Shown: positions 4,335-41,265 of the stretch, in pieces
Position numbering within the stretch: position 1 is the first letter of the stretch
Layout: the number at the start of each line of letters is the position of its first letter
Assembly: GCA_026129685.1 (NCBI GenBank)
Contig: JAHCHO010000003.1
Location: forward strand, 235,256-299,255
Direction of reading: 5' to 3'
DNA length: 64,000 nucleotides
Origin: Fimbriimonadaceae bacterium
GTDB lineage: Bacteria; Armatimonadota; Fimbriimonadia; Fimbriimonadales; Fimbriimonadaceae
Notes under the pieces: generated by a model
The model's database searches: none
What the model was told of the DNA's origin: nothing
Seen by the model: only the letters and a program-made list of their open reading frames with translations
Position numbers and translations under genes: made by a program

Positions 4335-4343
4335 ACGGAGAGG

Positions 4344-5359: not shown

Positions 5360-5492
5360 GACGTTAACTTGCGAAATGACGACTCACCTACCCGACTGCG
5401 TTTTGGTCGCGAAAAGTTCCAGCAAAAGTTTGCCGGCCGGAATGCCGTCGACCCGCGAACCGGTCTTGGCCCTCGGCCCGTCCTTTACTCCG

Positions 5493-6713
5493 ATGGCGAC
5501 CGCGCCCCCGCTTCTGCGATCGGCCCGTCCGTCCGTTCGTTCGGGCCGGGTGCGCGTCGCCGGCGCCCCCCGCGTTCCCTTTGGGGCGGCCGTGGTCAGC
5601 CTGTTTTCCGGCGCCGGCGGGCTTGACCTTGGCTTTGAACAAGCTGGGTTCGAAACGCTCGTATGCGTCGAGCACGACCGCCATTGCCGCCGCACCCTCG
5701 CCGCCAACCGTCCGCAGTGGCGGCTCATCGAAGGGGACGATCCGACGAATCCGGGGGATGTTCGTCGCGTCCGCCCGGAAGCGATCCTCACGACGATCGG
5801 CCGGCGCAGGGGCGAGGTGGACGTGGTGATCGGCGGCCCGCCCTGCCAATCGTTCTCCAACTTGGGACGAAAGCTCGGCGCCCAGGACCCCGCGAACGGG
5901 GACCTTTTCGTACACTACGCGCGGCTGATAGACGGCCTGTTGCCCCGCGCGTTCGTCTTCGAGAACGTCGAGGGACTGACGCAAACGCGCCACGACGACG
6001 TCCGCGCCCATCTCCACTCGCGCTTTCGCGCCCTTGGCTACCGGCTCGCCGAAGGCATGCTTGTCGCGGCCGACTACGGCGACCCTCAGTTGCGCCGACG
6101 CTTCGTCATCGTCGGTATGCAAGGCGTGGACGATGTCGGCCTGCCCGAGCCCGTCTACTTCGCCGACCCGGAGTCCCACGCGAGCTTCTTCGCCGACCAT
6201 TCCGATCCGCTCCCCTTCCGCCCCTACCGCACGCTTGGCGAGGCCCTCTCCGAACCACTGCCGCACGGGCGAGAGGACGACCTCCGGATGGGGGTGACGG
6301 ACGAGGTTCGCGCGCGAATGCGCTGGATCGGACCCGGCGAGAACTTTCGCGTCCTGCCCGACGCGCTGCGTCCGGCCTGCTGGCGAACCGGTCGCCACCA
6401 AGGGGCCGACACCTTCGGCCGCCTCCGCGCCGACCGCCCCTCCGTCGCCGTCCGCACCAGCGCCTACAACCCGTCGAAGGGGCGCTACATCCACCCCACC
6501 GAGGACCGGGGCCTCTCCACCCTTGAGATGGCCCGCCTTCAGAGCTTTCCCGACGAGTGGCGCTTCGTCTGCGACGGACGCCCCACCTTGGTCGGCATCG
6601 GCCGCATGATCGGCAACGCCGTCCCCGTCCGGCTTGCCCACGCCATCGCCCTCGCCGTTCGCGTCCAGCTTCGCGAGCAACCGAACGCGCCTCGCCGATG
6701 CGAGCCGCCATAG
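5493..6713 (+). CDS. dcm: DNA (cytosine-5)-methyltransferase; start uncertain (ORF opens at 5376; ATG at 5442/5493 or a later GTG possible)
   Basis: Motif I 'FSGAGGLDLGF', motif IV 'GGPPCQSFS', motif VI 'ENVEGL', and motifs IX/X 'LSTLEMARLQSFPDEW ... IGNAVPV'. Confidence 0.85.
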   Translation: MATAPPLLRSARPSVRSGRVRVAGAPRVPFGAAVVSLFSGAGGLDLGFEQAGFETLVCVEHDRHCRRTLAANRPQWRLIEGDDPTNPGDVRRVRPEAILTTIGRRRGEVDVVIGGPPCQSFSNLGRKLGAQDPANGDLFVHYARLIDGLLPRAFVFENVEGLTQTRHDDVRAHLHSRFRALGYRLAEGMLVAADYGDPQLRRRFVIVGMQGVDDVGLPEPVYFADPESHASFFADHSDPLPFRPYRTLGEALSEPLPHGREDDLRMGVTDEVRARMRWIGPGENFRVLPDALRPACWRTGRHQGADTFGRLRADRPSVAVRTSAYNPSKGRYIHPTEDRGLSTLEMARLQSFPDEWRFVCDGRPTLVGIGRMIGNAVPVRLAHAIALAVRVQLREQPNAPRRCEPP

Positions 6714-8678: not shown

Positions 8679-8960
8679 GCCGCACCCTGTTTCGCGAACC
8701 GCCGCCCGGTTCCTTCGACGATGCGACCAAAGCCCGAGCCGCGGGCAAGAAGACCCACCTTCCCCCAACGCCGACCGATATGCTCTGCTCGTCTTCGGCG
8801 CGTAATGCCCAGTCGCCTCGACCCAGGCTCGAACCAACCCTCCGCGACTCAGCGTCGTTCTCGCGAAGGTCTTCTCCGACGAAGCAGGTATCCTTTGGCG
8901 TCGCGTTTTGACGCGATCTGGGTTGTCATGGCTCGTATCACCACGCGCAAGGAAGCCCGT

Positions 8961-11900
8961 ATGAGAGTGAGACTCAACATGATGTTGCTTCGGAACGCCT
9001 TCCGCAGAACGACCCGGGCGCCTTTCGGTAAGGCGTTCGGTCTGTTACTGACCCTCTTCGCGACCCTCTTTCCCGGGGTCGCACTCGCGTCCGGCGGCGA
9101 AAACGTCGCCCTCGAGTTCACCTCGTCCGACCTGATCTACCTTTGGGTATCCCTCGGGTTCGGCTTGGTCGCCCTCCTCGCGGGCGTGTTCCTCATCAAG
9201 TCGGTCTTGGCCCAATCGCCAGGTTCCGCGAAGATGCAGGAGGTCGGCCAAGCGATCAAGGAAGGCGCGCTCGCCTACCTGCGACGCCAAGTCCGGACGA
9301 TGATCCCCTTCGTCCTGGTCCTCGCCGTCGGCCTGTGGGCGATGTACAACCCGCAGTACGGAAGCACGACCGCCCTCTTCGTGGCGCTCTCCTTCGTGGG
9401 CGGCGTCGCCGCCTCCTACATCGCGGGCTACGTCGGCATGATCATGGCCGTCAACGGCAACATGCGGACGGCGCACGCCTCCCTCACCAGCTTCAAGAGG
9501 GCGCTCGAAGTCGCCTTCCGAAGCGGCGGCGTCGCCGGCATGATCACCGTCGGCATGGGCCTGATCGGCGCGACCATCATCTTCCTCGGCGCCCGAGGCG
9601 AGGCCATGAAGCTCCTCGTCGGCTTCGGCTTTGGTGGCTCGCTCGCCGCGCTCTTCATGCGCGTCGGCGGCGGCATCTTCACGAAGGCCGCCGACGTCGG
9701 AGCCGACCTGGTCGGCAAGGTCGAGGCCGGAATCCCCGAGGACGACCCCCGGAACCCCGCCACCATCGCCGACAACGTTGGCGACAACGTCGGCGACTGC
9801 GCCGGCATGGCCGCCGACATCTTCGAGTCCTACGAGGTCACCCTCGTCGCCGCGATCGTGCTCGGCGCCGCCACCGCCTCGATCTTCGACACCGCGACCT
9901 GGATGAAGCTCATCCTCTTCGCGCTGATGGCCCGCGGCGTCGGCATCGTGGCCTCCATCCTTGGCATCCTCTCCGTGCGCGGCACCGACGACGTCAACGT
10001 GGACGCCCTCAAGCCCATCCGCAAAGGCTTCGCCTTCTCCGCGATCGTCGCCCTGATCGGGACCGCCGGCATCGCCTGGTTCATGATGGGCGGCAAAGGC
10101 GATCCCATCAAGACGACCCAGCTCAAGTCCACCGACGAGTATCGGGCGGAGGAGATCAAGCAGGTCCAGAGCGTCCGCGACCAGATCGCCAAGGACAAGA
10201 AGCTCAAGGATTGGGAGGTCGCCCTCAAGGACGTCAGCGACGACTCTCGCGTCAAAACCCTCTTCCCCGACGAGCAGATTCGCCAGCAGGTGGTCTCGAC
10301 CGCGCTCTTCACCGAACTTGACAAGCTGCCGATCCCGGAGACCTTGAAGGGCTATCAGCCCCTCGACTTCACCAAGACCGGTGGTGTCCTCGACTACGCG
10401 ATCAACAACCCGAACGCCGAGCAGTTCAACCCCGCCGACAAGGTTTCCATCAAGGACGCCTTCGGAGGGACGGGCAAGGACCTGTTCGTGTTTCGCCTCG
10501 AGATCAGCCCCAAACCCGCCGCGGGCCAGACCCCTCCTGCGGGCCAGAAGCCCGAGACCCGCTGGTACGGTCCCGTCAGCGTGGCCGCCAAGGACAAGCT
10601 CATCAAGCAGGCCACCGGCATCGAGGTCAAGGAACTTGCCAAGGTCCCCGTCGCGCTCTACGCGAACCACGACGGCGACCTCGTCGCCGTCGCCGAACCG
10701 GACCTCAAGGAGCCGCACCGCGTCATCCCGATGATGCCGCTCTCCTACTATCCGATGAGCCCCGCCGACTACAAGAAGGCGGAAGAGGCCTCCCAGAAGG
10801 ACCCGGCGAAGCCCCTGCCGCGCCCGGCCGAGATCAAACTCGCCGTCGCGACCCACAACGTGGTGCCGTGGTACCTGTTCTTCATCGCCATCGCTTTCGG
10901 CGTGCTCATGGCCTTCGCCATCGAATCGCTCACCGACTACTACGTCTCGACCCATAAGAAGCCCGTTCAGGAGGTCGCCGCCGTCGCCACCGCCGGCCCC
11001 GCCCCCATGATCATCCAGGGCTTCGCCTACGGCCTCGAATCCAGCGTGATCTCGGTCTTCGCGATCGTCATCGCCCTGCTCGTGCCCCTGGCCATCTTTG
11101 CTCCCGCCCTCTACGGCGGATACCTGCTGAGCTTCTACGGGGTCGCCCTCGTCGGGCTCGGCCTCCTGACCACCACCGGCTACATCCTCGCGATGGACAC
11201 CTTCGGCCCGATCTCGGACAACGCCCAAGGCGTCTACGAGATGTCTGGCGAAGGCCACGACAACGAATACGGCATGAAGGGCGTCCAGCGCCTCGACGCC
11301 GCCGGCAACACGACGAAAGCGCTGACGAAGGGCTTCGCCATCGCGACCGCCGTCGTCGCCGCCGTCGCGCTGTTCCACTCGTACGTCGAAGCCGCCCGGC
11401 TCGTCACCGTCGGCATGCCGATCGAGGTGCCCGAGATCTTCCTCGGCCTTCTGATCGGTGGCGCGGCCCCCTACCTGTTCTCCGCCTTCTCGATCAACGC
11501 GGTCGGTCGCGCCGCCTTCGAACTCATCTACGAAGTGCGCAGCCAGTTCCGCAACGATCCGGGAATCATGGCGGGCACCAGCAAACCGAACTACGGTCGC
11601 TGTGTGGCCATCGTGACGGCGGCGGCGCAGAAGGAACTCCTCGGCCCCGGCGTCCTCGCGATCGCCCTCCCCGCCCTCGTCGGCTTCGGCTTCGCCATCG
11701 GCAAGCCGCCCACCGAGATCGGCGGCAACCTCTACAACCTCACTGGCGCCCAGGCGCTCGGTGGGTTCCTCGCCGGCGCGATCGTCAGCGGTCAGCTCAT
11801 GGCCGTCCTCCTCGCCAACTCGGGCGGCATGTGGGACAACGCCAAGAAGCTCATCGAAGACGGTCTCCACGGTGGCAAGGGGACGGAAGCCCACAAGGCC

Positions 11901-12239
11901 GGCGTCGTCTGCGACACCGTCGGCGATCCGTTCAAGGACACCGCCGGGCCCGCCCTCAACCCGCTCATCAAGGTCATGAACCTGGTGGCGCTGTTGCTGG
12001 CGCCGGTGGTCATCCTTCCGCTTGCTCAGAACACGCTGATCATCATCGCCCTCGTCGCCGCCGCCGCCCTGACCTTCTCGTTCTGGTGGTCCAAGCGTGG
12101 CTCGATGGGATCGGCGATGACCGCGGCCACCGCGGCGAACGCGGCCGCCGCGATCGCCGCCCCGGCTCCCGGTCCGACCGTGGCTCCCAAGCCGAAGAAG
12201 ACCATCACCGTGGACGACGAACCGACCGACAAGAACTGA
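8961..12239 (+). CDS. hppA: membrane-bound proton-translocating pyrophosphatase (K+-independent type), unusually long (1092 aa)
   Basis: 'GGGIFTKAADVGADLVGKVE', 'DNVGDNVGDCAGMAADIFESY' and 'DTVGDPFKDTAGPALNPLIKV'. 'GNTTKA' carries the Lys of the K+-independent subgroup. The ATG at 8961 is preceded by AAGGAAG; an ATG at 8928 is also possible. Confidence 0.9.
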   Translation: MRVRLNMMLLRNAFRRTTRAPFGKAFGLLLTLFATLFPGVALASGGENVALEFTSSDLIYLWVSLGFGLVALLAGVFLIKSVLAQSPGSAKMQEVGQAIKEGALAYLRRQVRTMIPFVLVLAVGLWAMYNPQYGSTTALFVALSFVGGVAASYIAGYVGMIMAVNGNMRTAHASLTSFKRALEVAFRSGGVAGMITVGMGLIGATIIFLGARGEAMKLLVGFGFGGSLAALFMRVGGGIFTKAADVGADLVGKVEAGIPEDDPRNPATIADNVGDNVGDCAGMAADIFESYEVTLVAAIVLGAATASIFDTATWMKLILFALMARGVGIVASILGILSVRGTDDVNVDALKPIRKGFAFSAIVALIGTAGIAWFMMGGKGDPIKTTQLKSTDEYRAEEIKQVQSVRDQIAKDKKLKDWEVALKDVSDDSRVKTLFPDEQIRQQVVSTALFTELDKLPIPETLKGYQPLDFTKTGGVLDYAINNPNAEQFNPADKVSIKDAFGGTGKDLFVFRLEISPKPAAGQTPPAGQKPETRWYGPVSVAAKDKLIKQATGIEVKELAKVPVALYANHDGDLVAVAEPDLKEPHRVIPMMPLSYYPMSPADYKKAEEASQKDPAKPLPRPAEIKLAVATHNVVPWYLFFIAIAFGVLMAFAIESLTDYYVSTHKKPVQEVAAVATAGPAPMIIQGFAYGLESSVISVFAIVIALLVPLAIFAPALYGGYLLSFYGVALVGLGLLTTTGYILAMDTFGPISDNAQGVYEMSGEGHDNEYGMKGVQRLDAAGNTTKALTKGFAIATAVVAAVALFHSYVEAARLVTVGMPIEVPEIFLGLLIGGAAPYLFSAFSINAVGRAAFELIYEVRSQFRNDPGIMAGTSKPNYGRCVAIVTAAAQKELLGPGVLAIALPALVGFGFAIGKPPTEIGGNLYNLTGAQALGGFLAGAIVSGQLMAVLLANSGGMWDNAKKLIEDGLHGGKGTEAHKAGVVCDTVGDPFKDTAGPALNPLIKVMNLVALLLAPVVILPLAQNTLIIIALVAAAALTFSFWWSKRGSMGSAMTAATAANAAAAIAAPAPGPTVAPKPKKTITVDDEPTDKN

Positions 12240-19136: not shown

Positions 19137-20369
19137 CTAAGCTTGCGGCCTCCGCGTCTTGGACTGCGACCGAATCATCCGGTACCACCAAGTCGTCTCG
19201 TACGAGGGGTAGTCGTGAATCGACTTGGGCGGACGCCTCATGATCTCGTCGAACTCTTCCTCCGTGATCCCGAGTTTCTTGATCGTGAACAGCCGATCCT
19301 GCTCCTTCTTCTCCTTCGGGTAGAAGTCGTGCTCCAACTCGGCAAGAGCGTCCTCCCGGCTGAGTTGGCCGCTGACGATCAGGGCGGACAGATGCCCCCG
19401 ACGCTTGTCGAACCCGAACTTTTCGATCAGGATGTACTGCTGAAAGAAGCGGGTGTAAATCGACTCGCCGTGCTTCTGGCCGTACTCTCTCCAACCGTAG
19501 TGCTCGATCATGAAGCGCTTGGCCGCTTCCTTGTCGTAGTCCAGCCAATCGAGAAGCGGCTGGCGATAGATCTTGTTCAGGCGCGTCGTATAGACGTCGT
19601 CCCAAAACGAGTAGTGGGGAAAGGTCTTGAGCGGGACCGAGCCGAAGATGCGCTGGACGCTCTTGATGTACTTCCAGTCCTTGTGTCCCTGAGACCAAAG
19701 AAGCGGCACCATCCCCTCGCTCTGCGCGTTGACCCCCGTCAGGATGTACTTCAGTCCGAACTTCTTGGCCATCTTCACCATCAGCGCCAGAATCGCGTGG
19801 TCCGATGGAATCTCCGCGTCCGGGGTGGAGGCCTTCAGGAACGACAGCTGAAGATCGCGGAACTCCTCCCAATCGAGCACTTCCGTGTGCAGGTCGATCT
19901 TGAGGAGGTCCAGCATGTTCCGGATGTTGTGCACCGCTTCCACGGTGTTCCAACCGTTGTCCAAGTGAACGGCGAGGGGATTGAGCCCCAGTTTCTCCTT
20001 GACCGCATACGCCGTATAGCTCGAATCGACCCCTCCGCTGACGCCGATGATGCAGTCGTAATCCCTACCCTTCGCACTGGCCTTCACGCGATCGACCAGC
20101 GAAGACAGCGCGCGCTCCGCCTCCGCCCCGGCCTTGATCCTCATCGCCAGAATCTTCTTCTGTTGGTGGCAGTGGTTGCAGACGCCCTTATCGTCGAACC
20201 GAATGCCCGGATCGCTCGTGTCCATCACGCACTGCGAGCACATCTGGTAAGGACGGTCATTATAGAACGGACTGGTCCGTGGCAGCGGCCAATGGTTCTG
20301 CGCCCGAAAATGGTCGGGCGAGGCGTGCGTCTCGTGAAGGCTCGGTTCCTTGATCATTGCTTGCGTCAC
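19137..20369 (-). CDS. N-acetyl sugar amidotransferase (WbpG/PseA-like, PP-loop ATP pyrophosphatase fold)
   Basis: Zn-ribbon 'CSQCVMDTS ... CNHCH' followed by the PP-loop 'IIGVSGGVDSSY'. It is linked to HisH/HisF paralogues. Confidence 0.85.
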   Translation of the reverse strand: MTQAMIKEPSLHETHASPDHFRAQNHWPLPRTSPFYNDRPYQMCSQCVMDTSDPGIRFDDKGVCNHCHQQKKILAMRIKAGAEAERALSSLVDRVKASAKGRDYDCIIGVSGGVDSSYTAYAVKEKLGLNPLAVHLDNGWNTVEAVHNIRNMLDLLKIDLHTEVLDWEEFRDLQLSFLKASTPDAEIPSDHAILALMVKMAKKFGLKYILTGVNAQSEGMVPLLWSQGHKDWKYIKSVQRIFGSVPLKTFPHYSFWDDVYTTRLNKIYRQPLLDWLDYDKEAAKRFMIEHYGWREYGQKHGESIYTRFFQQYILIEKFGFDKRRGHLSALIVSGQLSREDALAELEHDFYPKEKKEQDRLFTIKKLGITEEEFDEIMRRPPKSIHDYPSYETTWWYRMIRSQSKTRRPQA

Positions 20370-21133
20370 TATTCGCCGAAAACGCGGCGTCGTTCGGCCA
20401 ACGGCGGAAAACTAATGAGAACGGCGCGATGCTTGCCGTGAAACACGAAGAGGCTCCCCGCCGCCACCGCCGAAGCGCCCCCCTCCTTCACCGCCCGACC
20501 CAGATCCTCCACGCTTCCCGCGCCGCCGCAGGCCACCACCGGCACCGAAACCGCGTCGCTCACCGAACGCACCAGCTGCAGGTCGTAACCGCCCATCGTT
20601 CCGTCGCGGTCGATCGAGTTGACGATGATCTCGCCCGCCCCCTTCGCCTGAAGTTCTTTGGCGAAGGATACCGGATCGCGCTTCGTGCCCTTCGTTCCCC
20701 CGTGGGTGAAGACCTCGTACTTGCCGAACAGGTTCCGCTTCACGTCGAGACACGCGACGACGCTCTGGCTCCCGAAGTCGTCCGCCGCCCGCGAAAGAAA
20801 ATCCGGGTCCTGGTGCGCGTGCGAGCAGACCACCACCTTCTCGACCCCGAGCTGCAGGAGCCGCCGCGCGTCTTCCAGGTTGTTCACCCCGCCGCCGTAA
20901 CCCAGCGGCATGAACGCCTCCGAAACGATCTCTTGGATCAGGTCGAAACGCGGCCGCGCCCCCTGCTTCGTCGCCTCGATGTCGAGCAACACCAACTCGT
21001 CCACCTCGAGGTCGTTGAACAGCTTCACCGCGTTGCGAGGGTCGCCCACGTACTTCGGCTCCTTGAACTTGACCGTCTTGACGAGGCCAAGGCCCTTGAG
21101 CAGGAGGCACGGAATGACGCGGGTCGGGATCAT
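20369..21133 (-). CDS. imidazole glycerol phosphate synthase cyclase-subunit paralogue (HisF2/WbuZ-like)
   Basis: 'RVIPCLLLKGLGLVKTVKF' and 'GAGEIIVNSIDRDGTMGGYDL ... PVVACGGAG'. Confidence 0.9.
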   Translation of the reverse strand: MIPTRVIPCLLLKGLGLVKTVKFKEPKYVGDPRNAVKLFNDLEVDELVLLDIEATKQGARPRFDLIQEIVSEAFMPLGYGGGVNNLEDARRLLQLGVEKVVVCSHAHQDPDFLSRAADDFGSQSVVACLDVKRNLFGKYEVFTHGGTKGTKRDPVSFAKELQAKGAGEIIVNSIDRDGTMGGYDLQLVRSVSDAVSVPVVACGGAGSVEDLGRAVKEGGASAVAAGSLFVFHGKHRAVLISFPPLAERRRVFGE

Positions 21134-21748
21134 CTAGTAGTTCTCGACGAAATTGCGCAGCAGCTTCAGCCCAAACCGGTGGCTCTTCTCCGGATGAAAC
21201 TGGGTCCCGACGATGTTGTCGCGGCCGACCGACGAGTGGAACTCCGTGCCGTAGGTCGTGGTCGCGTACACGTTCCTATCGTCCGCGCAACGCACATGGT
21301 ACGTGTGCACGAAGTAAAAGCGCGTGTCGTCAAAACGGTCTCGGAAGATCGGCGGTTCCCCCCGCACCGAAACCGTGTTCCACCCCATGTGCGGCAACTT
21401 CAGCGGCGTCGGACCGTCGTTGGCGAACCGCACCGAATCGGCCTCGATCCACCCGAGCCCCGGCCGAACGCCCTCCTCGCTCCCTCGGCAGAACAGCTGC
21501 ATGCCGAGGCAGATGCCCAAGATCGGAACCCCGTCCCGCAACACCCGCTCGTTCAGCGGACCGACCAAACCCCGCTCCTCGAGGTTCTGCATCGCCCGGT
21601 CGAACGCCCCCACCCCCGGCAGGATCAGCTTCTCCGCCGATCGCACGTCCGCCGGATCGGACGTGATCGTGGACTCCGCCCCGATCCGCAACAGCATGTT
21701 GCGGATCGAGCCCAGATTGCCCATTCCGTAATCGACGATCGTGACCAT
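21134..21748 (-). CDS. glutamine amidotransferase subunit paralogue (HisH2/WbuY-like)
   Basis: 'IVDYGMGNLGSIRNML', nucleophile elbow 'ILGICLGMQL', and 'GTQFHPEKS'. Confidence 0.9.
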   Translation of the reverse strand: MVTIVDYGMGNLGSIRNMLLRIGAESTITSDPADVRSAEKLILPGVGAFDRAMQNLEERGLVGPLNERVLRDGVPILGICLGMQLFCRGSEEGVRPGLGWIEADSVRFANDGPTPLKLPHMGWNTVSVRGEPPIFRDRFDDTRFYFVHTYHVRCADDRNVYATTTYGTEFHSSVGRDNIVGTQFHPEKSHRFGLKLLRNFVENY

Positions 21749-21872
21749 GGTTCGAGCCTAAAGGACTCTAACCACAATAATGACCGATCGGAATCGAACA
21801 GGTGCCGAGCAACGCCCGAAAAACCGGTGGATCGCGACCGATTTGCGGCGAGGAAGCCCCTCCCGCCTTCCG

Positions 21873-22826
21873 CTAGTTGGCGTGCGCCTCGTCGATCGCC
21901 GCCCGCAGGTTCGTCCACGGCGTGTCCCCCGGGACCGTGCACTCCGCTCCCAGCATGAATCGACGCGACCGGTTCGCCAGCCCTGCCCGCGCCGCCGCCC
22001 GCGCCTCCGCCTCCGTCCCCCGGGAGAGCGCGCCCAGCCGGTCCAGGCCTCCGAAAAACGGCCGCCCCCCCATCGCGTCGGATACCTCCTGCGGCGTCCA
22101 GCGACGGCCTCCCATGTCCAGCGCGGCGCTCACCATCTGCCCCGGATAGCCCTCAAAGAACCCCAAGTCTCGGTACTCCCCGTACTCCGAACGATGGTAG
22201 TCGCACACGTGCAGGATGCTGAAGGGGCACCGCGCCGCGAACGACCCCATCACCGCCAGATCGAACGGCTTGACGTGGGCCTCGAACGTCTCCGGCGAGG
22301 CGAACCGACCCTCCTCCGCCCCCTGGGTCGAGGCGTAGAAGCCGTCCGCCCCCGCCGCCACGCAGGCGTCCACGAAACCCATCAGGCACTCCGCCGCGAT
22401 CTCGATGCCCGCCCGCGCCGAAGTCGGCTCCTCGTCCAGGTGACGACGCAGAACGTCTCGTCCCCCCAGGTTGCCCGCGCACATGAAGGGCGAGTACAGC
22501 GTCACCACCACGAGCGCCTCCTTCCCCAGCGCCTCGACCAACGCCCGCACGACCTCCACCTGCGGCCCGAAGACCTCCTCCCCGAAGCGCGGCGCGCGCC
22601 GCCAGTCGTCTGGCGAGCGCGGGTCGAAGCGGGGGAACGGCAACTCCAACTGCACCTTGACCAAATCCATTCCCGTGAACTCGAAGAACTCCCGGTGCTT
22701 CGCCACCGCCGCCGCCCCGGCGTGGCAGTCCGGTGGAAAGTGAAGGAAGAATGCCGCCGGCGTCTCCGCTTGTTCGCCGATCGGGTCCAGAAGGCTGAGA
22801 ACGCGTTCGCGTCGGGAAAGGGCCAT
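21873..22826 (-). CDS. uroporphyrinogen decarboxylase (URO-D)-like family protein
   Basis: 317 aa with TIM-barrel-like alternation. 'LVVVTLYSPFMCAGNL' and 'FSILHVCD' resemble URO-D/MtaA-type proteins. This is a family-level call from pattern only. Confidence 0.65.
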   Translation of the reverse strand: MALSRRERVLSLLDPIGEQAETPAAFFLHFPPDCHAGAAAVAKHREFFEFTGMDLVKVQLELPFPRFDPRSPDDWRRAPRFGEEVFGPQVEVVRALVEALGKEALVVVTLYSPFMCAGNLGGRDVLRRHLDEEPTSARAGIEIAAECLMGFVDACVAAGADGFYASTQGAEEGRFASPETFEAHVKPFDLAVMGSFAARCPFSILHVCDYHRSEYGEYRDLGFFEGYPGQMVSAALDMGGRRWTPQEVSDAMGGRPFFGGLDRLGALSRGTEAEARAAARAGLANRSRRFMLGAECTVPGDTPWTNLRAAIDEAHAN

Positions 22827-23171
22827 GGCGACAGTCTACGTCCCGACCCATAGCGTCGGACCAACCGGTCCCACGCCGCCGGTCGGTCCCCGCGTCCCGG
22901 GCCCTTCCGTTCCCCTCCTCGTCTCCGGCTCCCCAGAAAGCCCACCGTCCGTTCGTTCCACAGTTGCGCGCGATTCCGTCAGTTCCGCCTCGTCGGCCCT
23001 CTCTTTGGATACCCGACGCACCCCGACGCCCGTCTACTGGCGGTTTGCGAGAAAACGCGCTAGAATGCACCCGATCCGCCCCTTGACAACCGAAAATCGG
23101 TCGTTTTGAGAATATTCTGTGGCGACCCCCCCGAAAAGCGGCGACCTAGACGGCTACCGGTGGCCTTAAAC

Positions 23172-23226
23172 GGCACGTCGAATCTGGCGACCCCCCCCGG
23201 TAACCCGGCTAATCGACGCCGTTTTT
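23172..23226 (+). terminator. stem-loop followed by a T5 tract inside the CRISPR-upstream region
   Basis: GGC(AC)GTCGA at 23172-23181 pairs with TCGACGCC at 23213-23220 and encloses an inner CCGG-TAAC-CCGG hairpin. GTTTTT follows at 23221-23226. A T5 run is conspicuous in this GC-rich DNA. Confidence 0.35.
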
Positions 23227-23352
23227 AGGGGATAGCGCCCCGGTCGCGGGTTCGAACGGGTCGTCCCGCCAAAAAGGCCCCGGGGGGTGTGCCATCGCTG
23301 TTTCTACGGACAGGTGGACAAACTCGAGCCTCGAAAACGCGATCCCAAACCC

Positions 23353-23381
23353 TTGCCAAACGAGGGTTTTCGTGCTATGAT
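23353..23381 (+). promoter_or_regulatory. sigma70-type promoter in the CRISPR leader
   Basis: TTGCCA (23353-23358), an exact 17-nt spacer, then TATGAT (23376-23381). The predicted start is about 10 nt before the first repeat (23399). Confidence 0.5.
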
Positions 23382-23398
23382 GGTCTTCGAAGGGCAGG

Positions 23399-24204
23399 GT
23401 TGCAACCCCCCCTCACCCCGCAAGGGGATTGAAACCCCAGACCGTCGCGACGGTGGTGGTCGAGGTGTCGGGTTGCAACCCCCCCTCACCCCGCAAGGGG
23501 ATTGAAACACTTCTCGGCTGATGCCGCAGAAGCCCGGGATCTCGGGTTGCAACCCCCCCTCACCCCGCAAGGGGATTGAAACTCGAAGTCGGCGCGGTTC
23601 GAGGAGTCCTTTCCGAAAAGGAGCCAGTTGCAACCCCCCCTCACCCCGCAAGGGGATTGAAACCTCCTGTTGGAACCGGCGCCACTCGCCGTAGCTCCTC
23701 AGGTTGCAACCCCCCCTCACCCCGCAAGGGGATTGAAACAGCGCGGCGCCCGGTTGATCCTGGCGGCCAGCTCGCGTTGCAACCCCCCCTCACCCCGCAA
23801 GGGGATTGAAACCCAATACAGTTTCTCGCTGTGATTACTACCCGACTACTTGCCTAGTTGCAACCCCCCCTCACCCCGCAAGGGGATTGAAACGAGTTCG
23901 CGCTGGCATCGAAGGCGACGGTCGAGCGCACGGCCCGGGTTGCAACCCCCCCTCACCCCGCAAGGGGATTGAAACGTAGTAGAGGCGGTACCAATGACCG
24001 CCTACGTACCGCAAGTTGCAACCCCCCCTCACCCCGCAAGGGGATTGAAACCATCTCTTCCGGTTCGCGCATTTCTCCCTGCGCGACGGGTTGCAACCCC
24101 CCCTCACCCCGCAAGGGGATTGAAACCTCCCGACTCGGCCCTCGCCGCAGACGACCCCCCACAACCCGTTGCACCCCCCCCTCACCCCGCAAGGCGGAGG
24201 GAGC
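23399..24204 (+). CRISPR. CRISPR array: 10 identical 37-nt repeats plus a degenerate terminal repeat, 10 spacers
   Basis: GTTGCAACCCCCCCTCACCCCGCAAGGGGATTGAAAC occurs identically at 23399, 23472, 23546, 23627, 23703, 23776, 23857, 23939, 24015 and 24090. A degenerate copy sits at 24168 (A7 to C, 3' third diverged). The spacers are 36, 37, 44, 39, 36, 44, 45, 39, 38 and 41 nt, and all are different. The degenerate repeat at the right end and the promoter at the left end set the orientation as +. Confidence 0.96.
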
Positions 24205-24240
24205 GCCGGGAACCCGAACGGCCCCGGCGCCCCCTCCGCC
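24193..24240 (+). terminator. long GC hairpin abutting the last (degenerate) repeat; candidate array terminator
   Basis: GGCGGAGGGAGCGCCGGG (24193-24210) pairs with CCCGGCGCCCCCTCCGCC (24223-24240). That is 18 bp with one A-C mismatch and a 12-nt loop. There is no clear U-tract. Confidence 0.4.
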
Positions 24241-24690
24241 ATGGGTGTTGGGTCGGACGACCGATGGATCGGTGACTCGAACGCGCCCGCTCTCCGGTTG
24301 CGGCCGTTCGCGTCGCCCAAGGCACCGGGAGTCGGCTTCGGTGTGGGTAACCCGGCGCAACTTGGCGTCCGGCCGGTCGCACCCCGGTCCCCGGTTGACC
24401 CTTACCCCCCGACCGCGCCAACCGGGACATGGCGCGCCCGATATCGCCTTCCGAGACCGGAGGAGCGCACCGAAAGTCGCGCGCGGGGCCGAATGATCCT
24501 TCGATGATCTTCCGGCGTTTTGGACCGGACCCGGGCCGACCTCAGGTTCAGAGTTTTCGTCACGGTTCCGGCGCGTTTCCGTCACGCCCCGTGATCGTCG
24601 GCCGCGACATCGTCTTCGTGCTCGAACCCCGGGCCGCGCGAGGCGCGTCTTCCCCGCGCCTCGGTATCCTCTCCAGGCAACCTCCGACCC

Positions 24691-25305
24691 ATGTCCTCGG
24701 TGACGCCACCCCCCCGCGAAGCGTCCGATAACTCGATGACCGTTGCGGTCGCCGAACCTCATCGCATGCACTACGACGACGACCTCGCCCTCGTCGAGCG
24801 ATATCTGGCGGGCGACGAAACCGCCTTCGGCACCCTCTACGGCAAGTACTACGAGCGCGTCTACGCCATCGCCAAGGGCGTCCTCCTCGACCGTGAGGAC
24901 GCCGCCGACGCCGCCCAGGAGATCTTCACCCTCGTCGTCCGGCACCTCCACCGCTTCGACCGCCGCTCCCGCTTCAGCACCTGGCTCTTCCGCATCGCCG
25001 TCAACCGCAGCATCCAGTACGGACGCAAGACCAAGCACAAGGCCAGGAACGTCGAGCTGAACGAGGCGATGGCGGTCGCCGAAGAGCAGAAGATCGAGAT
25101 CGCCGACCCCCTCATCCAGGCCGCCCTCGCCAAGCTCAAACCCAACGACCGCGCCCTGATCACCCTCTTCTACTGGGAGGAACTCAGCCTCCAGGAAATC
25201 GCCGAAAGCCTCGGCTGCAACGTGAACGCCGCCAAGACCCGCCTCTACCGCGCCCGCGAGCGGTTCCGCGAAGTCTACGAGGAGCTGGGGGTCGATGAAC
25301 CCTAA
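24691..25305 (+). CDS. RNA polymerase ECF-type sigma factor (start may be an internal Met)
   Basis: 'LVERYLAGDETAFGTLYGKYYERVYAIAKGVL', 'FSTWLFRIAVNRSIQY' and 'LITLFYWEELSLQEIAESLGCNVNAAKTRLYRARERF'. Confidence 0.9.
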   Translation: MSSVTPPPREASDNSMTVAVAEPHRMHYDDDLALVERYLAGDETAFGTLYGKYYERVYAIAKGVLLDREDAADAAQEIFTLVVRHLHRFDRRSRFSTWLFRIAVNRSIQYGRKTKHKARNVELNEAMAVAEEQKIEIADPLIQAALAKLKPNDRALITLFYWEELSLQEIAESLGCNVNAAKTRLYRARERFREVYEELGVDEP

Positions 25306-26110
25306 GCCGCCCATCGCCCTCGACGGCCTCATGTGGGCCATCGCCGAATCGCAGGACCGCCAAGGTCTGGCCGAGTTCCTGGCCAAGTACCCCGAGCACC
25401 GGGCCGAGATGGGTAAGCGGTTCGCAATGGTGGCTTCCCTGAAGGGTTCCAGTCCCTTGCGCGAGCACGTCCCCGTCGTCCCGCCCTTCCGCCGGCGCGA
25501 GATGGGTCCCACCCTCTCCCAACGCCGCCTCGTCGCCGCCGTAGCCGTCGCGGGCGTGTTCGCCCTCGGCTACGCCTCCTTCGAGGTCGCGCGCGTTCTC
25601 GCCAAACCCGCCGACGTTGTCCGCGTCGATCCCGTGCCGACCGAACCGCCCCCGAGTCCGACCCCGAACGTCGTCTACGTTCCCCCCAAGAACGTGGCGC
25701 CCGACCCCCACGGCGCGGGTCCCCTCCCCGGCGGGACGGCCGCGAGCCCCGACATCCGCTCGATCGACCTCGCCGACGTGCGCCTCCTCGACGCCGTGCG
25801 CCTGATCGCCGACGCCACCGGCTACGACGTGGAGATCGCCCCCGGGTTCCGCAACGTCCGCCTTCTGAAGGTGGCCTACACCGGGGTCACCGGCCTCGCC
25901 ATGCTCCGGGACCTCGGTTCGCGCGTGGGCTTTACCGTGTTCGAACAGGAACGGCGGAAACTGCTCCTCGTTCCCGCCCGGGACCCGAACGCCACCGAGC
26001 CCGCCCCCGTCGGCGATGTGGTCACCGAAAAAGAGAACGCCACCGGCGACTCGGCCAAGCCGAAGTCGCCCGTGGCGGACGGCGATCCGCCCCTGAAGGA
26101 GCGGACCTGA
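25295..26110 (+). CDS. putative single-pass anti-sigma factor with an STN/secretin-N-like C-terminal module
   Basis: It overlaps the sigma gene by 11 nt. TM helix 'LVAAVAVAGVFALGYASF', a Pro-rich linker, then 'IDLADVRLLDAVRLIADATGYDVEIAPGF ... VTGLAMLRDLGSRVGFTVFEQ'. Confidence 0.5.
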   Translation: MNPKPPIALDGLMWAIAESQDRQGLAEFLAKYPEHRAEMGKRFAMVASLKGSSPLREHVPVVPPFRRREMGPTLSQRRLVAAVAVAGVFALGYASFEVARVLAKPADVVRVDPVPTEPPPSPTPNVVYVPPKNVAPDPHGAGPLPGGTAASPDIRSIDLADVRLLDAVRLIADATGYDVEIAPGFRNVRLLKVAYTGVTGLAMLRDLGSRVGFTVFEQERRKLLLVPARDPNATEPAPVGDVVTEKENATGDSAKPKSPVADGDPPLKERT

Positions 26111-34541: not shown

Positions 34542-36554
34542 TTAGTCGCCGCGAACGGGACGTCGCGTCACCGTATTGCTCGCCAGGGTGACCGCCCCCG
34601 TCTTCGTCAGCAGAGTGCCGTCCAGCCGCGCCCCGGTGTTCACCGTGATCGACACTTCGGCAAGGATGACGCCCTTGAACACCGAGTTGACTCCGAGCGT
34701 CGCCGACGTGCCCACCGACCAGTACACGTTCGTCGCCTTGGTTCCGCCGGCCAGCACCACCTGCGTGCCCGTGGACGTCGTCAGCGTGCTGCCCATCTGG
34801 AAGATGAACACCGCGTCCGAGTCGCCCTGCGCGTCGAGCGTCACGTTCCCCGCCGTCAGCATCACCGATGTCGAGTTCTTGTACAGCCCCGGCGTGAACG
34901 TCAGTCCGGAGAGGTTGCCGGGCAGCGTCGCCGCACCCAGCCGACTCGATGCCTCGAGCTGACCCGTGAGCAGGTCGCTCTTCGCCTTGGCCGCCACCGC
35001 GTTGCCGGCCTGGATGCTGCCGTTGACCCGTCCTGGAGGGAAGCCGACCACCGCCGAGCCGGGGCTAAGGCCCAGGTCGCCGTTGATCACCGTCGGTCCC
35101 GCGTTTGTGACCGTCGAGCCCGCCAAGACCGCGTAGGTCGAGGCCGCCCCGAGGTCGATCGTGCCCTGAGCGCGCTGGACGCCGGTCCGGAAAGTCCAGA
35201 CCTTCCGAACGGCCAGCGAGTTGCCCGTCGAGTCCTTCGCCCCGGTCCCGATGTTCGCCGTGTACAAGGTGTCCGGCGATAGGTCTCGCAAGGGCCTGAA
35301 GGTGGCGATCCGGTTGCTCGTGTCGTAGGTCACGGTGCCCGAAATCCCTTCGACGGTGAACGTCGAAGTGTTCAGGGTGTCGGCGCGCATCGGCTCGCTG
35401 AACGTCGCGTTGATGCTTCGGTTGAGGAACACGTTCGTCGCGCCGTCCGACGGATTCGTCGAGGTCACCGTCGGCGCCGTGCCGTCGACGATCCCCGCCG
35501 TCGTGAAGTTCCAGACCTTCGCGGCTTCGATCACGTTCCCGGAAGTGTCCTTGACTCCGGTCGACAGGATCGCCGTGTAGACGGTGTTGGCCGTGAGCGA
35601 GGCGTCCGGGTCGAGAACGGCCACCCGACTCGCGTAGGAGATCGTCGCCGGGATCGCGCCGCCGCCCGCCTTCTTGAGGGTGAACGTGGCCGAACTGATC
35701 GTCGCCGCGTCCATCTCCTCGCTGAACGTTGCCGTTATGTTTTTGTTGGTGGCGACGCCAACCGCACCCGCCGTCGGGTCGGTCGCCGTCACTCTCGGGA
35801 AAGTCGTGTCCGCGTTGGTGCCCGTCGTGAACGTCCAGACATGGTCGCTCGCTAGCGGGTTGTCCGATAGATCCTGGATTCCCGTCGTAAGGGTAGCGGT
35901 ATAGGTGGTGCTCGCCGACAGAGGACGGTTGGGGCTGAACGCCACAACGTTGTCGAGCACCGTCAGGTTGCCCGACTGGGCGCCCCCCGGACCGATCAGA
36001 CGAAACGTGGAGGCGTTGATCGAGGCGACGGCGACCGTCTCGCTAAAGTGAACCACCAGACTCTTGTTCGTCGCGACCCCCGTCGCCGCGCCGACCGGGT
36101 CCGTCGAGGTTACGGTGGGGGCGACCGTGTCGGGCGCGTCGCCCGTCTTGAACGTCCACGAGTAGTTCTGATGCATCGGCGTACCCGCGCGGTCGCGCAC
36201 CGCGGTCGTGATGGTGGCGGTGACCGAAGTTCGGACCGGGATCACCGAGTTCAGACTCAGCGTGGCCGTCCGGTCCACCACGCTCAAGGTTCCGGCGAGC
36301 GGCCCGCCCGGGCCCGTCGCCCGAAACGTGTCGCTCGTGAACGTCGCCGGGTCCATCGGCACGCTGAAGGTCGCCACGATCCGCTTGGCCGTGGGCGTGG
36401 AAAGGTCGCCGCTTCGGGGCGTCACCGAGGTGACGGACGGAGGCGTCGGGCGGGCGCCGGTGCCATCGTCGCCCCCTCCGTTGCCCCCGCATCCCGAGAT
36501 GAGCGCGCCGGACACGATGATCGCGAGCGCGCCAATAGTGATTCGTTTGTTCAT
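34542..36554 (-). CDS. surface lipoprotein: 4 tandem Ig-like (SbsA_Ig/Big_5-type) repeats + C-terminal ice-binding-like DUF3494 domain
   Basis: Lipobox 'GALISGC'. There are four units of about 100 aa, each starting 'P-x-VTS(T/V)(D/N/T)P' and ending 'W(T/N)F(K/T/R)T(G/A)'. The C-terminus 'AASTYAVLAGSTVTNAGPTVINGDLGLSPGSAVVGFPPG ... AVFIFQMGSTLTTSTGTQVVL ... NVYWSVGTSATLG' is a close pattern match to DUF3494 ice-binding proteins. Confidence 0.85.
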   Translation of the reverse strand: MNKRITIGALAIIVSGALISGCGGNGGGDDGTGARPTPPSVTSVTPRSGDLSTPTAKRIVATFSVPMDPATFTSDTFRATGPGGPLAGTLSVVDRTATLSLNSVIPVRTSVTATITTAVRDRAGTPMHQNYSWTFKTGDAPDTVAPTVTSTDPVGAATGVATNKSLVVHFSETVAVASINASTFRLIGPGGAQSGNLTVLDNVVAFSPNRPLSASTTYTATLTTGIQDLSDNPLASDHVWTFTTGTNADTTFPRVTATDPTAGAVGVATNKNITATFSEEMDAATISSATFTLKKAGGGAIPATISYASRVAVLDPDASLTANTVYTAILSTGVKDTSGNVIEAAKVWNFTTAGIVDGTAPTVTSTNPSDGATNVFLNRSINATFSEPMRADTLNTSTFTVEGISGTVTYDTSNRIATFRPLRDLSPDTLYTANIGTGAKDSTGNSLAVRKVWTFRTGVQRAQGTIDLGAASTYAVLAGSTVTNAGPTVINGDLGLSPGSAVVGFPPGRVNGSIQAGNAVAAKAKSDLLTGQLEASSRLGAATLPGNLSGLTFTPGLYKNSTSVMLTAGNVTLDAQGDSDAVFIFQMGSTLTTSTGTQVVLAGGTKATNVYWSVGTSATLGVNSVFKGVILAEVSITVNTGARLDGTLLTKTGAVTLASNTVTRRPVRGD

Positions 36555-40518: not shown

Positions 40519-40884
40519 TCACTCCAGCCTGGAGAGACCGATCGCGTAGGCAAGAGCGACGTCCATCCGGGCGATCTCGGCCCTATCGAGTCTGCCAAGC
40601 CTTCCGCCGACCCTCCGCACCGAGACCGTCCGGACTTGGTTCAGCATCACTTTCGACGGTTGGCTCAAACCCGTTTCGGCCGAATCTAGCAGCGTCTCGA
40701 ACGGATACACCCTTTCCAGCTTGCGGATCGTTATCGCGGCCACCGTGATTACCGGGCTGAGGGCATTGTAGATCGTCGGACTCAGGACGACGGCAGGCCT
40801 TCGACCGCCTTGTTCGGAGCCGACGACCGGGTCGAAGTCCACCCATACAACGTCTCCTCGAGCCCATTTCGGCTCAGGACGCAC
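40519..40884 (-). CDS. mazF: type II toxin, PemK/MazF family endoribonuclease
   Basis: 'RGDVVWVDFDPVVGSEQGGRRPAVVLS' and 'VITVAAITIRKLERVYPFE'. Confidence 0.88.
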   Translation of the reverse strand: MRPEPKWARGDVVWVDFDPVVGSEQGGRRPAVVLSPTIYNALSPVITVAAITIRKLERVYPFETLLDSAETGLSQPSKVMLNQVRTVSVRRVGGRLGRLDRAEIARMDVALAYAIGLSRLE

Positions 40885-41161
40885 GCGTCCACACCTCGTC
40901 TTCGATTGGATTCCAGGCCTCGGATTCCTCCGTCCAGATCTCGGCCATGTCCTCGCACATGGCGACGATGTCCGCGCGAAGCTTGGCGAGCCGGTCTTCT
41001 TCGAGTTTGCGCGCGATCAGTTCCTCGAGCACCCGACTCCGATCACCGGACGGAACCGCCGACTCGAACTCCTGGACCAGCGATCCCGACAGCGCGTAGG
41101 TCCGTTTGGTTTTTCGCGCAATCGCCATACGATAATTATGGCGAATAGGCACGATGGCCAA
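40874..41161 (-). CDS. cognate antitoxin (RHH/MazE-like); start at 41161 or the internal ATG at 41128
   Basis: Small acidic ORF overlapping mazF by 11 nt. 'KRTYALSGSLVQEFESAV' is a beta-strand/helix N-terminus typical of ribbon-helix-helix antitoxins. Confidence 0.6.
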   Translation of the reverse strand: MAIVPIRHNYRMAIARKTKRTYALSGSLVQEFESAVPSGDRSRVLEELIARKLEEDRLAKLRADIVAMCEDMAEIWTEESEAWNPIEDEVWTRAS

Positions 41162-41265
41162 GAGCGGTCCCTAAAGGAGCGCACATCTTGACGTCAATAC
41201 GGAAGTCTGGCGCGTCCCGACATTTGATCCAGCGAACCGTCGTTGCGCTGGGGTTTGCTACCCTA

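Follow-up and report, generated by a model that had tools for sequence, protein, structure and literature searches.

A CRISPR array remote from cas genes in a Fimbriimonadaceae chromosome, probably a satellite of a Cas6-dependent class 1 system

The array described here lies in a 64-kb stretch of DNA, the whole of which was analysed and is henceforth referred to as the window. Its surroundings consist of a URO-D family gene, a polysaccharide-synthesis cluster and an ECF sigma operon. The features of the locus are as follows, with positions counted from the first nucleotide of the window.

21873..22826, −: left flanking gene, URO-D family protein, 100% identical to MCW5941736.1 / KIS66_05865 (Fimbriimonadaceae MAG)
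22879..24431: lineage-specific module of ~1.55 kb (leader, array and trailer), delimited by blastn against two related lineages
22879..23398, +: non-coding leader preceding repeat 1 (22826–24691 contains no ORF with coding potential)
23353..23381, +: predicted sigma-70-type promoter-like site, TTGCCA-17 nt-TATGAT with a TG extended −10
23399..24204, +: CRISPR array of 10 identical repeats, 10 spacers and 1 degenerate terminal repeat
23399..23435, +: repeat 1 (leader-proximal), 37 nt, 0 mismatches
23436..23471, +: spacer 1, 36 nt
23472..23508, +: repeat 2
23509..23545, +: spacer 2, 37 nt
23546..23582, +: repeat 3
23583..23626, +: spacer 3, 44 nt
23627..23663, +: repeat 4
23664..23702, +: spacer 4, 39 nt
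23703..23739, +: repeat 5
23740..23775, +: spacer 5, 36 nt
23776..23812, +: repeat 6
23813..23856, +: spacer 6, 44 nt, lowest GC (45%) against 66% GC for the window
23857..23893, +: repeat 7
23894..23938, +: spacer 7, 45 nt
23939..23975, +: repeat 8
23976..24014, +: spacer 8, 39 nt
24015..24051, +: repeat 9
24052..24089, +: spacer 9, 38 nt
24090..24126, +: repeat 10
24127..24167, +: spacer 10, 41 nt
24168..24204, +: degenerate terminal repeat, 30/37, 5′ 27 nt nearly intact and 3′ handle decayed
24205..24431, +: trailer, non-coding, lineage-specific
24691..26110, +: right flanking genes, ECF sigma factor and 271-aa partner

The 37-nt repeat, GTTGCAACCCCCCCTCACCCCGCAAGGGGATTGAAAC, is present in 10 exact copies, every one of them on the + strand, and the chance expectation for copies of a 37-mer was 0 in 100 dinucleotide shuffles. 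Start-to-start spacing of the exact repeats is 73–82 nt, and the degenerate eleventh repeat, GTTGCACCCCCCCCTCACCCCGCAAGGCGGAGGGAGC, follows 78 nt beyond repeat 10 with damage mainly in its 3′ handle. The ten spacers all differ from one another and range from 45 to 78% GC. The locus displays the generic features of a CRISPR array: at least three near-identical direct repeats of 23–50 nt, unique spacers of similar length, non-coding DNA, a leader at one end and a decayed repeat at the other. The anatomy given in the initial annotation (ten identical 37-nt repeats, a decayed terminal one and ten unique 36–45-nt spacers) was reproduced exactly in its coordinates.

Long ORFs nominally overlap the array in this 66%-GC DNA, e.g. 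23304–23720 (−) and 23953–25512 (−), as would be the case if the locus were not CRISPR but an intragenic tandem repeat, a REP/MITE cluster or an artefact of assembly. In the codon model the overlapping ORFs show no sign of coding, and the reading as a protein-coding tandem repeat was rejected. Rfam CRISPR-DR families gave no match at gathering thresholds, the best scores being 29.1 bits vs 35 for DR31, 29.1 vs 50 for DR18 and 25.8 vs 39 for DR10; these sub-threshold scores lend the same alternative some support and were also weighed against the Cas6-dependent satellite array proposed below. Nevertheless, all ten repeats match three Rfam 37-nt CRISPR-DR families with E = 0.0009–0.02, all below the gathering score. 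The exact repeats, the unique and size-constrained spacers, the decayed terminal repeat and a 20-nt 3′ module common to at least 117 arrays, some of them beside Cas6/Cas1/Cas2/type III genes, likewise argue for CRISPR, and an origin other than CRISPR is considered extremely improbable.

Three independent features indicate the + orientation: the repeat has ATTGAAAC at its 3′ end, its decayed copy is the rightmost one, and the promoter-like site lies upstream of repeat 1. This predicted near-consensus sigma-70 promoter has 10/12 matches, is separated from repeat 1 by 18 nt and is the sole match in a scan of 22700–24800 (shuffle mean 0.1). No intrinsic terminator was predicted in the trailer. A doublet of GGCGACCCCCCC in the leader was discarded, its frequency being no higher than chance.

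Gene calling by codon usage yielded 55 genes in the window, plus one 40-aa ORF that was left unscanned. Pfam identified no Cas family among the 55 genes, whose Pfam content is limited to housekeeping, cell-envelope, flagellar, sigma-factor, toxin-antitoxin and methyltransferase families. Nine unannotated genes had no match in PADLOC or NCBIfam either, and a tenth gene without a Pfam assignment encodes a WbuX sugar amidotransferase. These searches upheld the earlier statement that the window contains no cas gene: none was found within ~20 kb of the array, nor anywhere in the 23 kb before it and the 39 kb after it. The absence of cas genes from the window was weighed against the satellite interpretation. 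In the PADLOC batch of 55 proteins, a C5 methyltransferase accounts for the matches listed; DUF1559, N_methyl and PEP-CTERM domains also occur among the window proteins. A planctomycetal origin suggested by these domains was rejected, as the left flanking protein is 100% identical to one from the KIS66 Fimbriimonadaceae MAG, to a 478-kb contig of which the window belongs. The ECF sigma and 271-aa genes adjoin the URO-D gene in array-less relatives too and are therefore not linked to the array. A Tn7-like CAST, phage or plasmid mini-array was also sought, and no transposase, TniQ, integrase or phage gene was found beside the array. Since mobile-element genes are lacking from the flanks and CCCCGCAAGGGGATTGAAAC gave 0 matches in IMG/VR, a transposon-, phage- or plasmid-borne array was rejected.

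In each repeat, ATTGAAAC follows the hairpin CCCC-GCAA-GGGG, an architecture of Cas6-processed class 1 repeats that had been correctly recognised in the initial annotation. All 10 repeats finish ...GGGGATTGAAAC, with an 8-nt handle of the form ATTGAAA[C/G]. The hairpin sits in the minimum-free-energy structure, and the fold of a single repeat gains no stability over shuffles (z = −0.43), a value that was weighed against the satellite/Cas6 interpretation. Related repeats were collected with a pattern that fixed the hairpin stem; in Thermus repeat-3 the corresponding stem is CCTC/GAGG, which represents a compensatory pair (PMC12102369).

The 20-nt 3′ module, CCCCGNAAGGGGATTGAAAC (hairpin and handle), was found in at least 117 stretches of GTDB representative genomes, and its hosts among the matches listed include cyanobacteria, Thermus/Meiothermus, Chloroflexota, Clostridia and a Fimbriimonadaceae MAG. 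Recurrent neighbours of these arrays are Cas6, Cas1, Cas2, the type III RAMPs Csx7 and TIGR03986, the III-D protein Csx10, Cas10/Cmr2 and a CARF ring nuclease, with Csm4 and Csm5 as neighbours in Caldilineaceae and Meiothermus. No type I signature protein is present among the annotated recurrent neighbour families. In other genomes, the repeat class is associated with type III and Cas6 genes. Among the matches listed, a recognised Cas cluster is present in only 26 of the 117 8-kb blocks around such arrays, so that placement away from cas genes is the norm for this repeat class, and cas6 adjoins the array in 11 of the 117. The type III-D/Csm-type loci of cyanobacteria, Caldilineaceae and Meiothermus (cas6-cas1-cas2-array with Csx10/Csx7/Cas10 or Csm4/Csm5) share the 3′ hairpin-handle module with the window array; their cas genes adjoin the array, whereas the window array has none in the 23 kb before it or the 39 kb after it. 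The Cas6 repeat module of cyanobacterial/Thermus type (hairpin and AUUGAAAC) reaches the Armatimonadota.

Near-exact copies of GTTGCAACCCCCCCTCACCCCGCAAGGGGATTGAAAC gave 0 matches in GTDB representative genomes, and a near-exact search of metagenomes returned one organism only (JGI 3300002491), whose proteins have Armatimonadetes/Fimbriimonadaceae homologues. The closest repeats found are GTTGCAACGCCCCTCCCCCCGCAAGGGGATTGAAAC of this organism (34/37) and CTTGCAATCGCCCCCACCCCGAAAGGGGATTGAAAC of the Fimbriimonadaceae MAG AS-MESO-3CA.376 (32/37); identity is likewise 32/37 for a cyanobacterial repeat and 26/37 for that of Thermus thermophilus. The last of these had been named as the closest look-alike, a position now taken by the Armatimonadota metagenome, with the Fimbriimonadaceae and cyanobacterial repeats also ahead of it; its sequence, GTTGCAAGGGATTGAGCCCCGTAAGGGGATTGCGAC, had been given correctly (PMC12102369). 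In the JGI 3300002491 organism, five contigs (JGI24187J35170_1000011/26/29/72/348) bear at least five arrays, and the readable flanks of these arrays contain housekeeping genes only, including the full 10 kb on one leader side. Housekeeping genes also occupy the readable flank of the AS-MESO-3CA.376 array (JBDHZD010000036.1). At least one Armatimonadota relative thus carries many dispersed arrays with no cas on readable flanks. Spacers measure 38–49 nt in these relatives and 36–45 nt in the window array. The arrays of both relatives differ from the window array in their 36-nt repeats, their other genomic sites and the lack of common spacers. No significant similarity was detected between the leader of the window array and that of a JGI 3300002491 array, and a promoter noted by eye in the latter was dropped as it failed the promoter scan. 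A Fimbriimonadaceae Cas6 was sought with a profile of five array-adjacent Cas6 proteins, and the named ones among the 120 matches listed are Caldilineaceae-like or Chloroflexi.

The Thermus thermophilus repeat is specific to type III-A/B (PMC12102369). It shares with the window repeat the GTTGCAA 5′ start and a hairpin of 4 bp (CCCC/GGGG) whose four-base loop has the form G..A, followed by an 8-nt ATTG..AC handle; it differs in being 36 nt long, in matching at 26/37 positions and in having the handle ATTGCGAC rather than ATTGAAAC. The two systems also resemble one another in their long variable spacers (34–47 nt in Thermus thermophilus, which has seven dispersed arrays and common Cas6 enzymes). 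Thermus repeat-1 spacers measure 34–47 nt (PMC12102369), and the spacer lengths at the window locus and in its relatives are compatible with Cas6-type class 1 arrays of this kind. The type I-B-specific Thermus repeat-3 likewise carries the ATTGAAAC handle (PMC12102369), and for that reason the handle alone cannot separate type III from type I-B.

A parallel for the genomic arrangement is provided by Anabaena PCC 7120, in which cas-less arrays were shown experimentally to be processed by the remote Cas6 enzymes Alr1482 (III-D) and Alr1566 (I-D) (Reimann et al. 2020, bioRxiv 10.1101/2020.04.14.041012 / RNA Biol 17:1442). There too, stand-alone arrays lie among ordinary chromosomal genes, and the genome combines many dispersed arrays with few cas cassettes. 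Cyanobacterial arrays resemble the window array in the 37-nt repeat length, the identical 20-nt 3′ module and up to 32/37 overall identity. Anabaena belongs to another phylum, whereas the window is Armatimonadota DNA of 66% GC with a C-rich 5′ half of the repeat.

Taken together, the array is probably a satellite ("distant") array of a Cas6-dependent class 1 system, most probably of type III, in a Fimbriimonadaceae chromosome. We infer for the source genome a cas locus, together with transcription, processing and interference. The array is predicted to be transcribed rightwards from the leader promoter as one pre-crRNA. Judging from the repeat class, a Cas6 encoded elsewhere would bind CCCC-GCAA-GGGG and cut at the 3′ base of the hairpin, giving crRNAs with the 8-nt 5′ handle AUUGAAAC. 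A remote type III (Csm/Cmr/III-D-like) effector would take up these crRNAs, with the spacers serving as immune memory, and a remote Cas1-Cas2 would add spacers at the leader end and keep the repeats identical.

Of bacterial CRISPRs, approximately 23% are separated by >20 kb from the nearest cas cluster and 12% reside in genomes without one, distant and orphan arrays together making up ~35%; 75% of distant arrays bear repeats of a subtype encoded in trans (PMC7145637). Since arrays remote from cas genes are common and normally served by Cas proteins encoded elsewhere, the array is real but ordinary. The unusualness implied by the initial annotation does not survive these frequencies and the remote Cas6 processing in Anabaena. 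The value of the locus is mainly one of annotation, as a clean cas-distant array in the poorly studied Armatimonadota.

The spacers were compared with 50,697 phage and 72,556 plasmid records and gave chance-level matches only (E ≥ 0.2). Seven exact-core IMG/VR scans, in which no mismatch was tolerated, returned no spacer match, and no match above chance was obtained against the window itself and the compared related loci. A search for spacer targets had been proposed in the initial annotation, and the phage, plasmid, IMG/VR and window sequences provided nothing above chance. Viruses of Armatimonadota are barely sampled. The lack of targets in the searched sets was weighed against a role in immune memory, and hence against the satellite interpretation.

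This lack would also suit a true orphan or relic, in which the compatible cas locus was lost or never present and the array, having come in alone or been left behind and being perhaps transcribed, is functionless and will decay. Consistent with such an origin, the 64 kb contain no cas gene, 12% of bacterial CRISPRs reside in cas-less genomes, and typed orphans average 10 repeats, the number observed here (PMC7145637), which was likewise weighed against a satellite array; the module is, moreover, missing from two relatives and thus dispensable. On the other hand, the ten repeats (370 nt) contain zero substitutions while the flanking genes diverge by 15–20% from the nearest relatives, an argument of limited reach since perfection could equally mean a young array. 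The near-consensus predicted promoter is kept, and numerous arrays with repeats of this family occur in related Armatimonadota, suggesting that the system is alive in the lineage. Distant arrays also outnumber orphans ~2:1 a priori (PMC7145637). An orphan or relic is accordingly judged unlikely, and a remotely served satellite array is preferred. If the complete genome were without cas, the intact repeats and promoter would make the array a somewhat more interesting orphan. CRISPR-Cas contigs are frequently missing from MAGs as a result of binning.

The presence of the module was compared with two relatives (L123 and L124/L126) whose flanking genes share ~80–85% nucleotide identity with the window and which are without it at the same sigma/URO-D intergenic site. 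By blastn, homology to the window stops near 22878–22923 on the left and restarts on the right at 24432 (L124/L126) or 24643 (L123), and the relatives' intergenic site consists of ~90–180 bp of unrelated DNA with no repeat core. A candidate "solo repeat" remnant, a 22-nt stretch of a relative's intergenic DNA that matches repeat positions 4–23, was rejected because 8/300 shuffles reach such a match, which is marginal after six tests.

The discrete 1.55-kb module, together with the strong predicted promoter and the lack of cas neighbours, is permissive for a non-canonical use as a source of regulatory RNA or of guides for Cas proteins brought by a mobile element. Such a use is regarded as very improbable: the spacers match neither the window nor the host-like sequences compared, the module has no transposon, integrase or phage gene at its flanks, and its anatomy is fully canonical, with nothing that demands such a role. 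It is also highly unlikely that the genome has no compatible cas genes at all and yet keeps a homogeneous, promoter-driven array, acquired as a discrete 1.55-kb leader-array cassette, which would have a Cas-independent role or await Cas from a mobile element. Beside the satellite interpretation, the presence or absence of the module at one intergenic site among relatives provides a small data point on the origin of isolated arrays.

The CRISPR array consisted of ten copies of a 37-nt repeat, GTTGCAACCCCCCCTCACCCCGCAAGGGGATTGAAAC, all on the + strand and without a single mismatch, where shuffled sequences gave an expectation of zero. Its features are listed below together with those of the surrounding module.

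Features of the CRISPR locus
22879-24431: module of ~1.55 kb (leader 520 nt, array 806 nt, trailer 227 nt)
23353-23381, + strand: sigma-70-like site, TTGCCA-17-TATGAT plus a TG extended -10 (10/12 positions match)
23399-24204, + strand: CRISPR array with ten exact repeats, ten spacers and a degenerate eleventh copy
24168-24204, + strand: degenerate terminal repeat (30/37), nearly intact over positions 1-27 and decayed at its 3' end

Repeats were spaced 73-82 nt from start to start. The ten spacers (36, 37, 44, 39, 36, 44, 45, 39, 38 and 41 nt, in order) were mutually distinct, with GC contents of 45%-78% compared to 66% for the window. Tandem Repeats Finder detected just part of the array, as expected because the spacers are unique. 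That the locus is something other than a CRISPR is effectively excluded; its initial annotation was exact in coordinates, repeat number and spacers, including the decayed eleventh copy, and the structural reasoning behind it was sound.

Three independent features agreed on a + strand orientation: the 8-nt 3' end of the repeat, ATTGAAAC, the degenerate copy at the right-hand end of the array, and the sigma-70-like site, which stops 18 nt upstream of repeat 1 and was the single match in 22700-24800 (shuffle mean 0.1). From this predicted promoter in its own leader the array would be transcribed; no intrinsic terminator was predicted. A CCCC-GCAA-GGGG mini-hairpin lies immediately 5' of the 8-nt tail and was included in the minimum-free-energy fold. 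Since the single repeat folded no better than its shuffles (z = -0.43), the hairpin rests on family resemblance and not on thermodynamics. At gathering thresholds the sole Rfam match in the whole window was a tRNA-Sec, while at relaxed thresholds all ten repeats matched the 37-nt families CRISPR-DR31, DR18 and DR10, each below the gathering score. The leader also contains an exact pair of GGCGACCCCCCC (23121-23132 and 23186-23197, 65 nt apart); two copies were found window-wide where 2.7 would be expected when one mismatch is tolerated, and the doublet is therefore probably meaningless.

Raw ORFs of at least 120 aa numbered 183 in the window. Because 66% GC floods such lists with false ORFs, genes were called from codon usage, using a model trained on the window itself, which yielded 55 genes, all of which were scanned, plus a single ORF of 40 aa. 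No Cas family was detected by Pfam in any of the 55 called genes. The matches were to metabolic proteins (kynureninase-like, peroxiredoxin, H+-PPase, CoaBC, guanylate kinase, CofD, thioredoxin-reductase-like, PNP, pyruvate kinase, RhaA and GH2 beta-galactosidase), envelope and polysaccharide proteins (Wzy, Wzz, DegT, flippase and deacetylase), two ECF sigma factors, a C5 DNA methyltransferase, a MazF toxin and a flagellar cluster that includes csrA-fliW. Pfam left ten genes without a match; PADLOC matched none of the ten, and NCBIfam named one, a WbuX sugar amidotransferase, leaving nine without a match there. With the Pfam-less genes thus passed through PADLOC and NCBIfam, the earlier statement that the 64 kb hold no cas gene stands.

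The class of system was approached through the 20-nt 3' module of the repeat (hairpin plus 8-nt handle), CCCCGNAAGGGGATTGAAAC, which was found in at least 117 stretches of GTDB representative genomes. Among the matches listed, hosts were mostly cyanobacteria, along with Thermus, Meiothermus, Deinococcota, Chloroflexota/Caldilineaceae, Clostridia and another Fimbriimonadaceae MAG, and nearly all repeats were 36-37 nt with a GTT or GTC start. Flanking ORFs were clustered and recurrent clusters annotated. Recurrent neighbors across the 117 stretches listed were Cas6 (11), the type III RAMP Csx7 (8), Cas1 (8), the type III RAMP TIGR03986 (7), type III-D Csx10 (6), Cas2 (6), a CARF ring nuclease (5) and Cas10/Cmr2 (4); the non-Cas recurrent clusters were syntenic Microcoleus housekeeping genes. 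Neither Cas3, Cas8 nor type I Cas7 appeared among the annotated recurrent families beside the arrays listed. At GC-rich non-cyanobacterial loci, genes adjoining cas6-cas1-cas2 were identified through searches against PDB sequences as Csm4 in Caldilineaceae and Csm5 in Meiothermus. Thermus repeat-3, which is specific to type I-B, shares the 8-nt handle ATTGAAAC (PMC12102369). A recognized Cas cluster was present in 26 of the 117 8-kb blocks listed, a rough figure and a lower bound on cas adjacency given the fixed 8-kb slices, and it shows that arrays of this class usually sit apart from cas genes. The literature agrees: in Thermus, seven scattered arrays share their Cas6 enzymes (PMC12102369); in Anabaena 7120, ten arrays compare with two cas cassettes, and remote Cas6 enzymes process the cas-less arrays (Reimann et al. 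2020).

The repeat itself had no match in GTDB representative genomes. Given this absence and the sub-threshold Rfam scores, it represents a new sequence variant from an under-sampled phylum, Fimbriimonadaceae being placed within Armatimonadota. The nearest repeat, GTTGCAACGCCCCTCCCCCCGCAAGGGGATTGAAAC (34/37), came from five contigs in a single metagenome (JGI 3300002491), where a gene adjoining one array had homologs annotated as Armatimonadetes or Fimbriimonadaceae. This one Armatimonadota-like organism has at least five separate arrays sharing one 36-nt repeat, with up to 16 repeats visible, and all five reach contig ends, the assembly being broken at each. The readable flanks contained ordinary genes only and no cas genes: four trailer-side flanks of 5-13 kb (including GalT, CTP synthase, Rho, arabinofuranosidase, YjeF and FHA/VWA proteins) and one full 10-kb leader-side flank (including DnaG, RpoD and a carboxyltransferase). 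In a second Fimbriimonadaceae MAG, housekeeping genes, PRPP synthetase and GlmU among them, come after a 23-repeat array (32/37). The layout of the lineage therefore seems, from these contigs, to be one of many scattered arrays, as is also known from Thermus and filamentous cyanobacteria; the relatives' cas loci were not among the readable flanks.

No spacer had a convincing target. Comparison with viral and plasmid records and with the window gave nothing beyond chance level for any spacer: whole-array BLAST against 50,697 phage and 72,556 plasmid records returned chance-level spacer matches only (E >= 0.2), its sole above-chance matches being repeat-to-repeat with Nostoc plasmid arrays; exact-core scans of IMG/VR with seven spacers, and with the repeat module, gave zero matches; and no self-match occurred in the window at up to nine mismatches. 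Spacers likewise matched none of the fetched loci, and none was common to the relatives' arrays. These negatives are weak evidence because sampling of Armatimonadota viruses is poor and no mismatches are tolerated in the IMG/VR scans.

On balance, the array is best read, with some reserve, as a satellite array, served in trans, of a class 1 system that depends on Cas6 and is probably of type III: its transcript would be processed, and then used, by proteins from another part of the genome. The main rival is a true orphan or relic, which seems rather unlikely; in complete genomes distant arrays outnumber orphans by ~2:1 and 75% of distant arrays match a subtype encoded in trans (PMC7145637). 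The perfect repeats, kept promoter and multi-array relatives add a modest further push toward a distant array, even if perfect repeats could equally mean a young one. A non-canonical role is very improbable, and nothing demands such a reading. As a cas-distant, Cas6-type array, it belongs to a well-known and common kind of object; the initial finding was correct, cleanly documented and soundly reasoned, but is an ordinary one.

To the left of the array lies a URO-D family gene, whose product is 100% identical to MCW5941736.1 (KIS66_05865, hypothetical protein, Fimbriimonadaceae bacterium), encoded on a MAG contig of 478,250 bp, and to the right an ECF sigma gene with a 271-aa partner gene. Two related lineages in Logan assemblies carried URO-D homologs 84% and 83% identical in protein, with flanking DNA at ~80-85%, and in both the sigma operon directly adjoins the URO-D gene. 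Because these genes are neighbors in array-less relatives, they are not array accessories. Homology stopped near 22878-22923 and restarted at 24432 (L124/L126, one relative) or 24643 (L123, the other); the relatives' gap held ~90-180 bp of unrelated C-rich DNA in which the repeat core was absent. The ~1.55-kb module is thus present in this genome alone among the three lineages compared, through either an insertion here or a deletion in the relatives. Its borders showed no transposase, integrase or terminal repeats. In place of the module, L123 has an intergenic 22-nt stretch, GCAAGCCCCCCCATCGCCCCGC (2345-2367), resembling repeat positions 4-23 (GCAACCCCCCCTCACCCCGC); its score was reached by 8/300 shuffles, with six such tests run, so the resemblance is marginal and may mark either a solo repeat in decay or a coincidence in C-rich DNA. 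Directly after its URO-D homolog, L123 also carries a restriction-modification pair (3432-5886; a weak RE_AccI match and an N6_Mtase/Eco57I-type gene) that is missing in L124 and in window 21000-22900. The CRISPR module lies on the opposite side of the URO-D gene from that pair, and the neighborhood seems, judging from gene content, to be a variable spot gathering different defense cargo.

Several other loci in the window were characterized. The tRNA-Sec (41266-41360, - strand; Rfam 76 bits, ARAGORN anticodon TCA) is followed directly downstream by a 95-aa ORF (40874-41161, -) that matched no family, and then by the gene for a PemK/MazF toxin (40519-40842, -); the two look like a toxin-antitoxin pair beside the selenocysteine tRNA (40519-41360). 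The C5 cytosine DNA methyltransferase (5550-6713, +; Pfam 4.9e-55; PADLOC type II MTase/DruM-like, 1e-81) is apparently a solitary methylase; no recognizable restriction enzyme adjoins it, its neighbors being an ECF sigma factor and a polysaccharide deacetylase. At 19137-21748 (-), "HisF" and "HisH" genes adjoin the WbuX-type N-acetyl sugar amidotransferase (TIGR03573, 3e-88) and a polysaccharide flippase, and are probably WbuY/WbuZ-like sugar-modification paralogs rather than histidine biosynthesis genes. The H+-translocating pyrophosphatase ORF (8895-12239, +) is 1114 aa as called and matched the 645-position Pfam model in two stretches; the excess length would come from a large insertion, an N-terminal extension or a start codon called too early. 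In a 670-aa protein (34542-36554, -), an ice-binding-like domain (Pfam 1.4e-56) comes after four Big_5 Ig-like domains, which makes it, by its predicted domains, an unusual surface protein. Finally, a flagellar block (57565-64000, -) comprising flgA, flgH, flgI, a rod-binding protein gene, flgN, flgK, flagellin, fliW and csrA indicates that the organism is probably motile, with a CsrA-FliW checkpoint.
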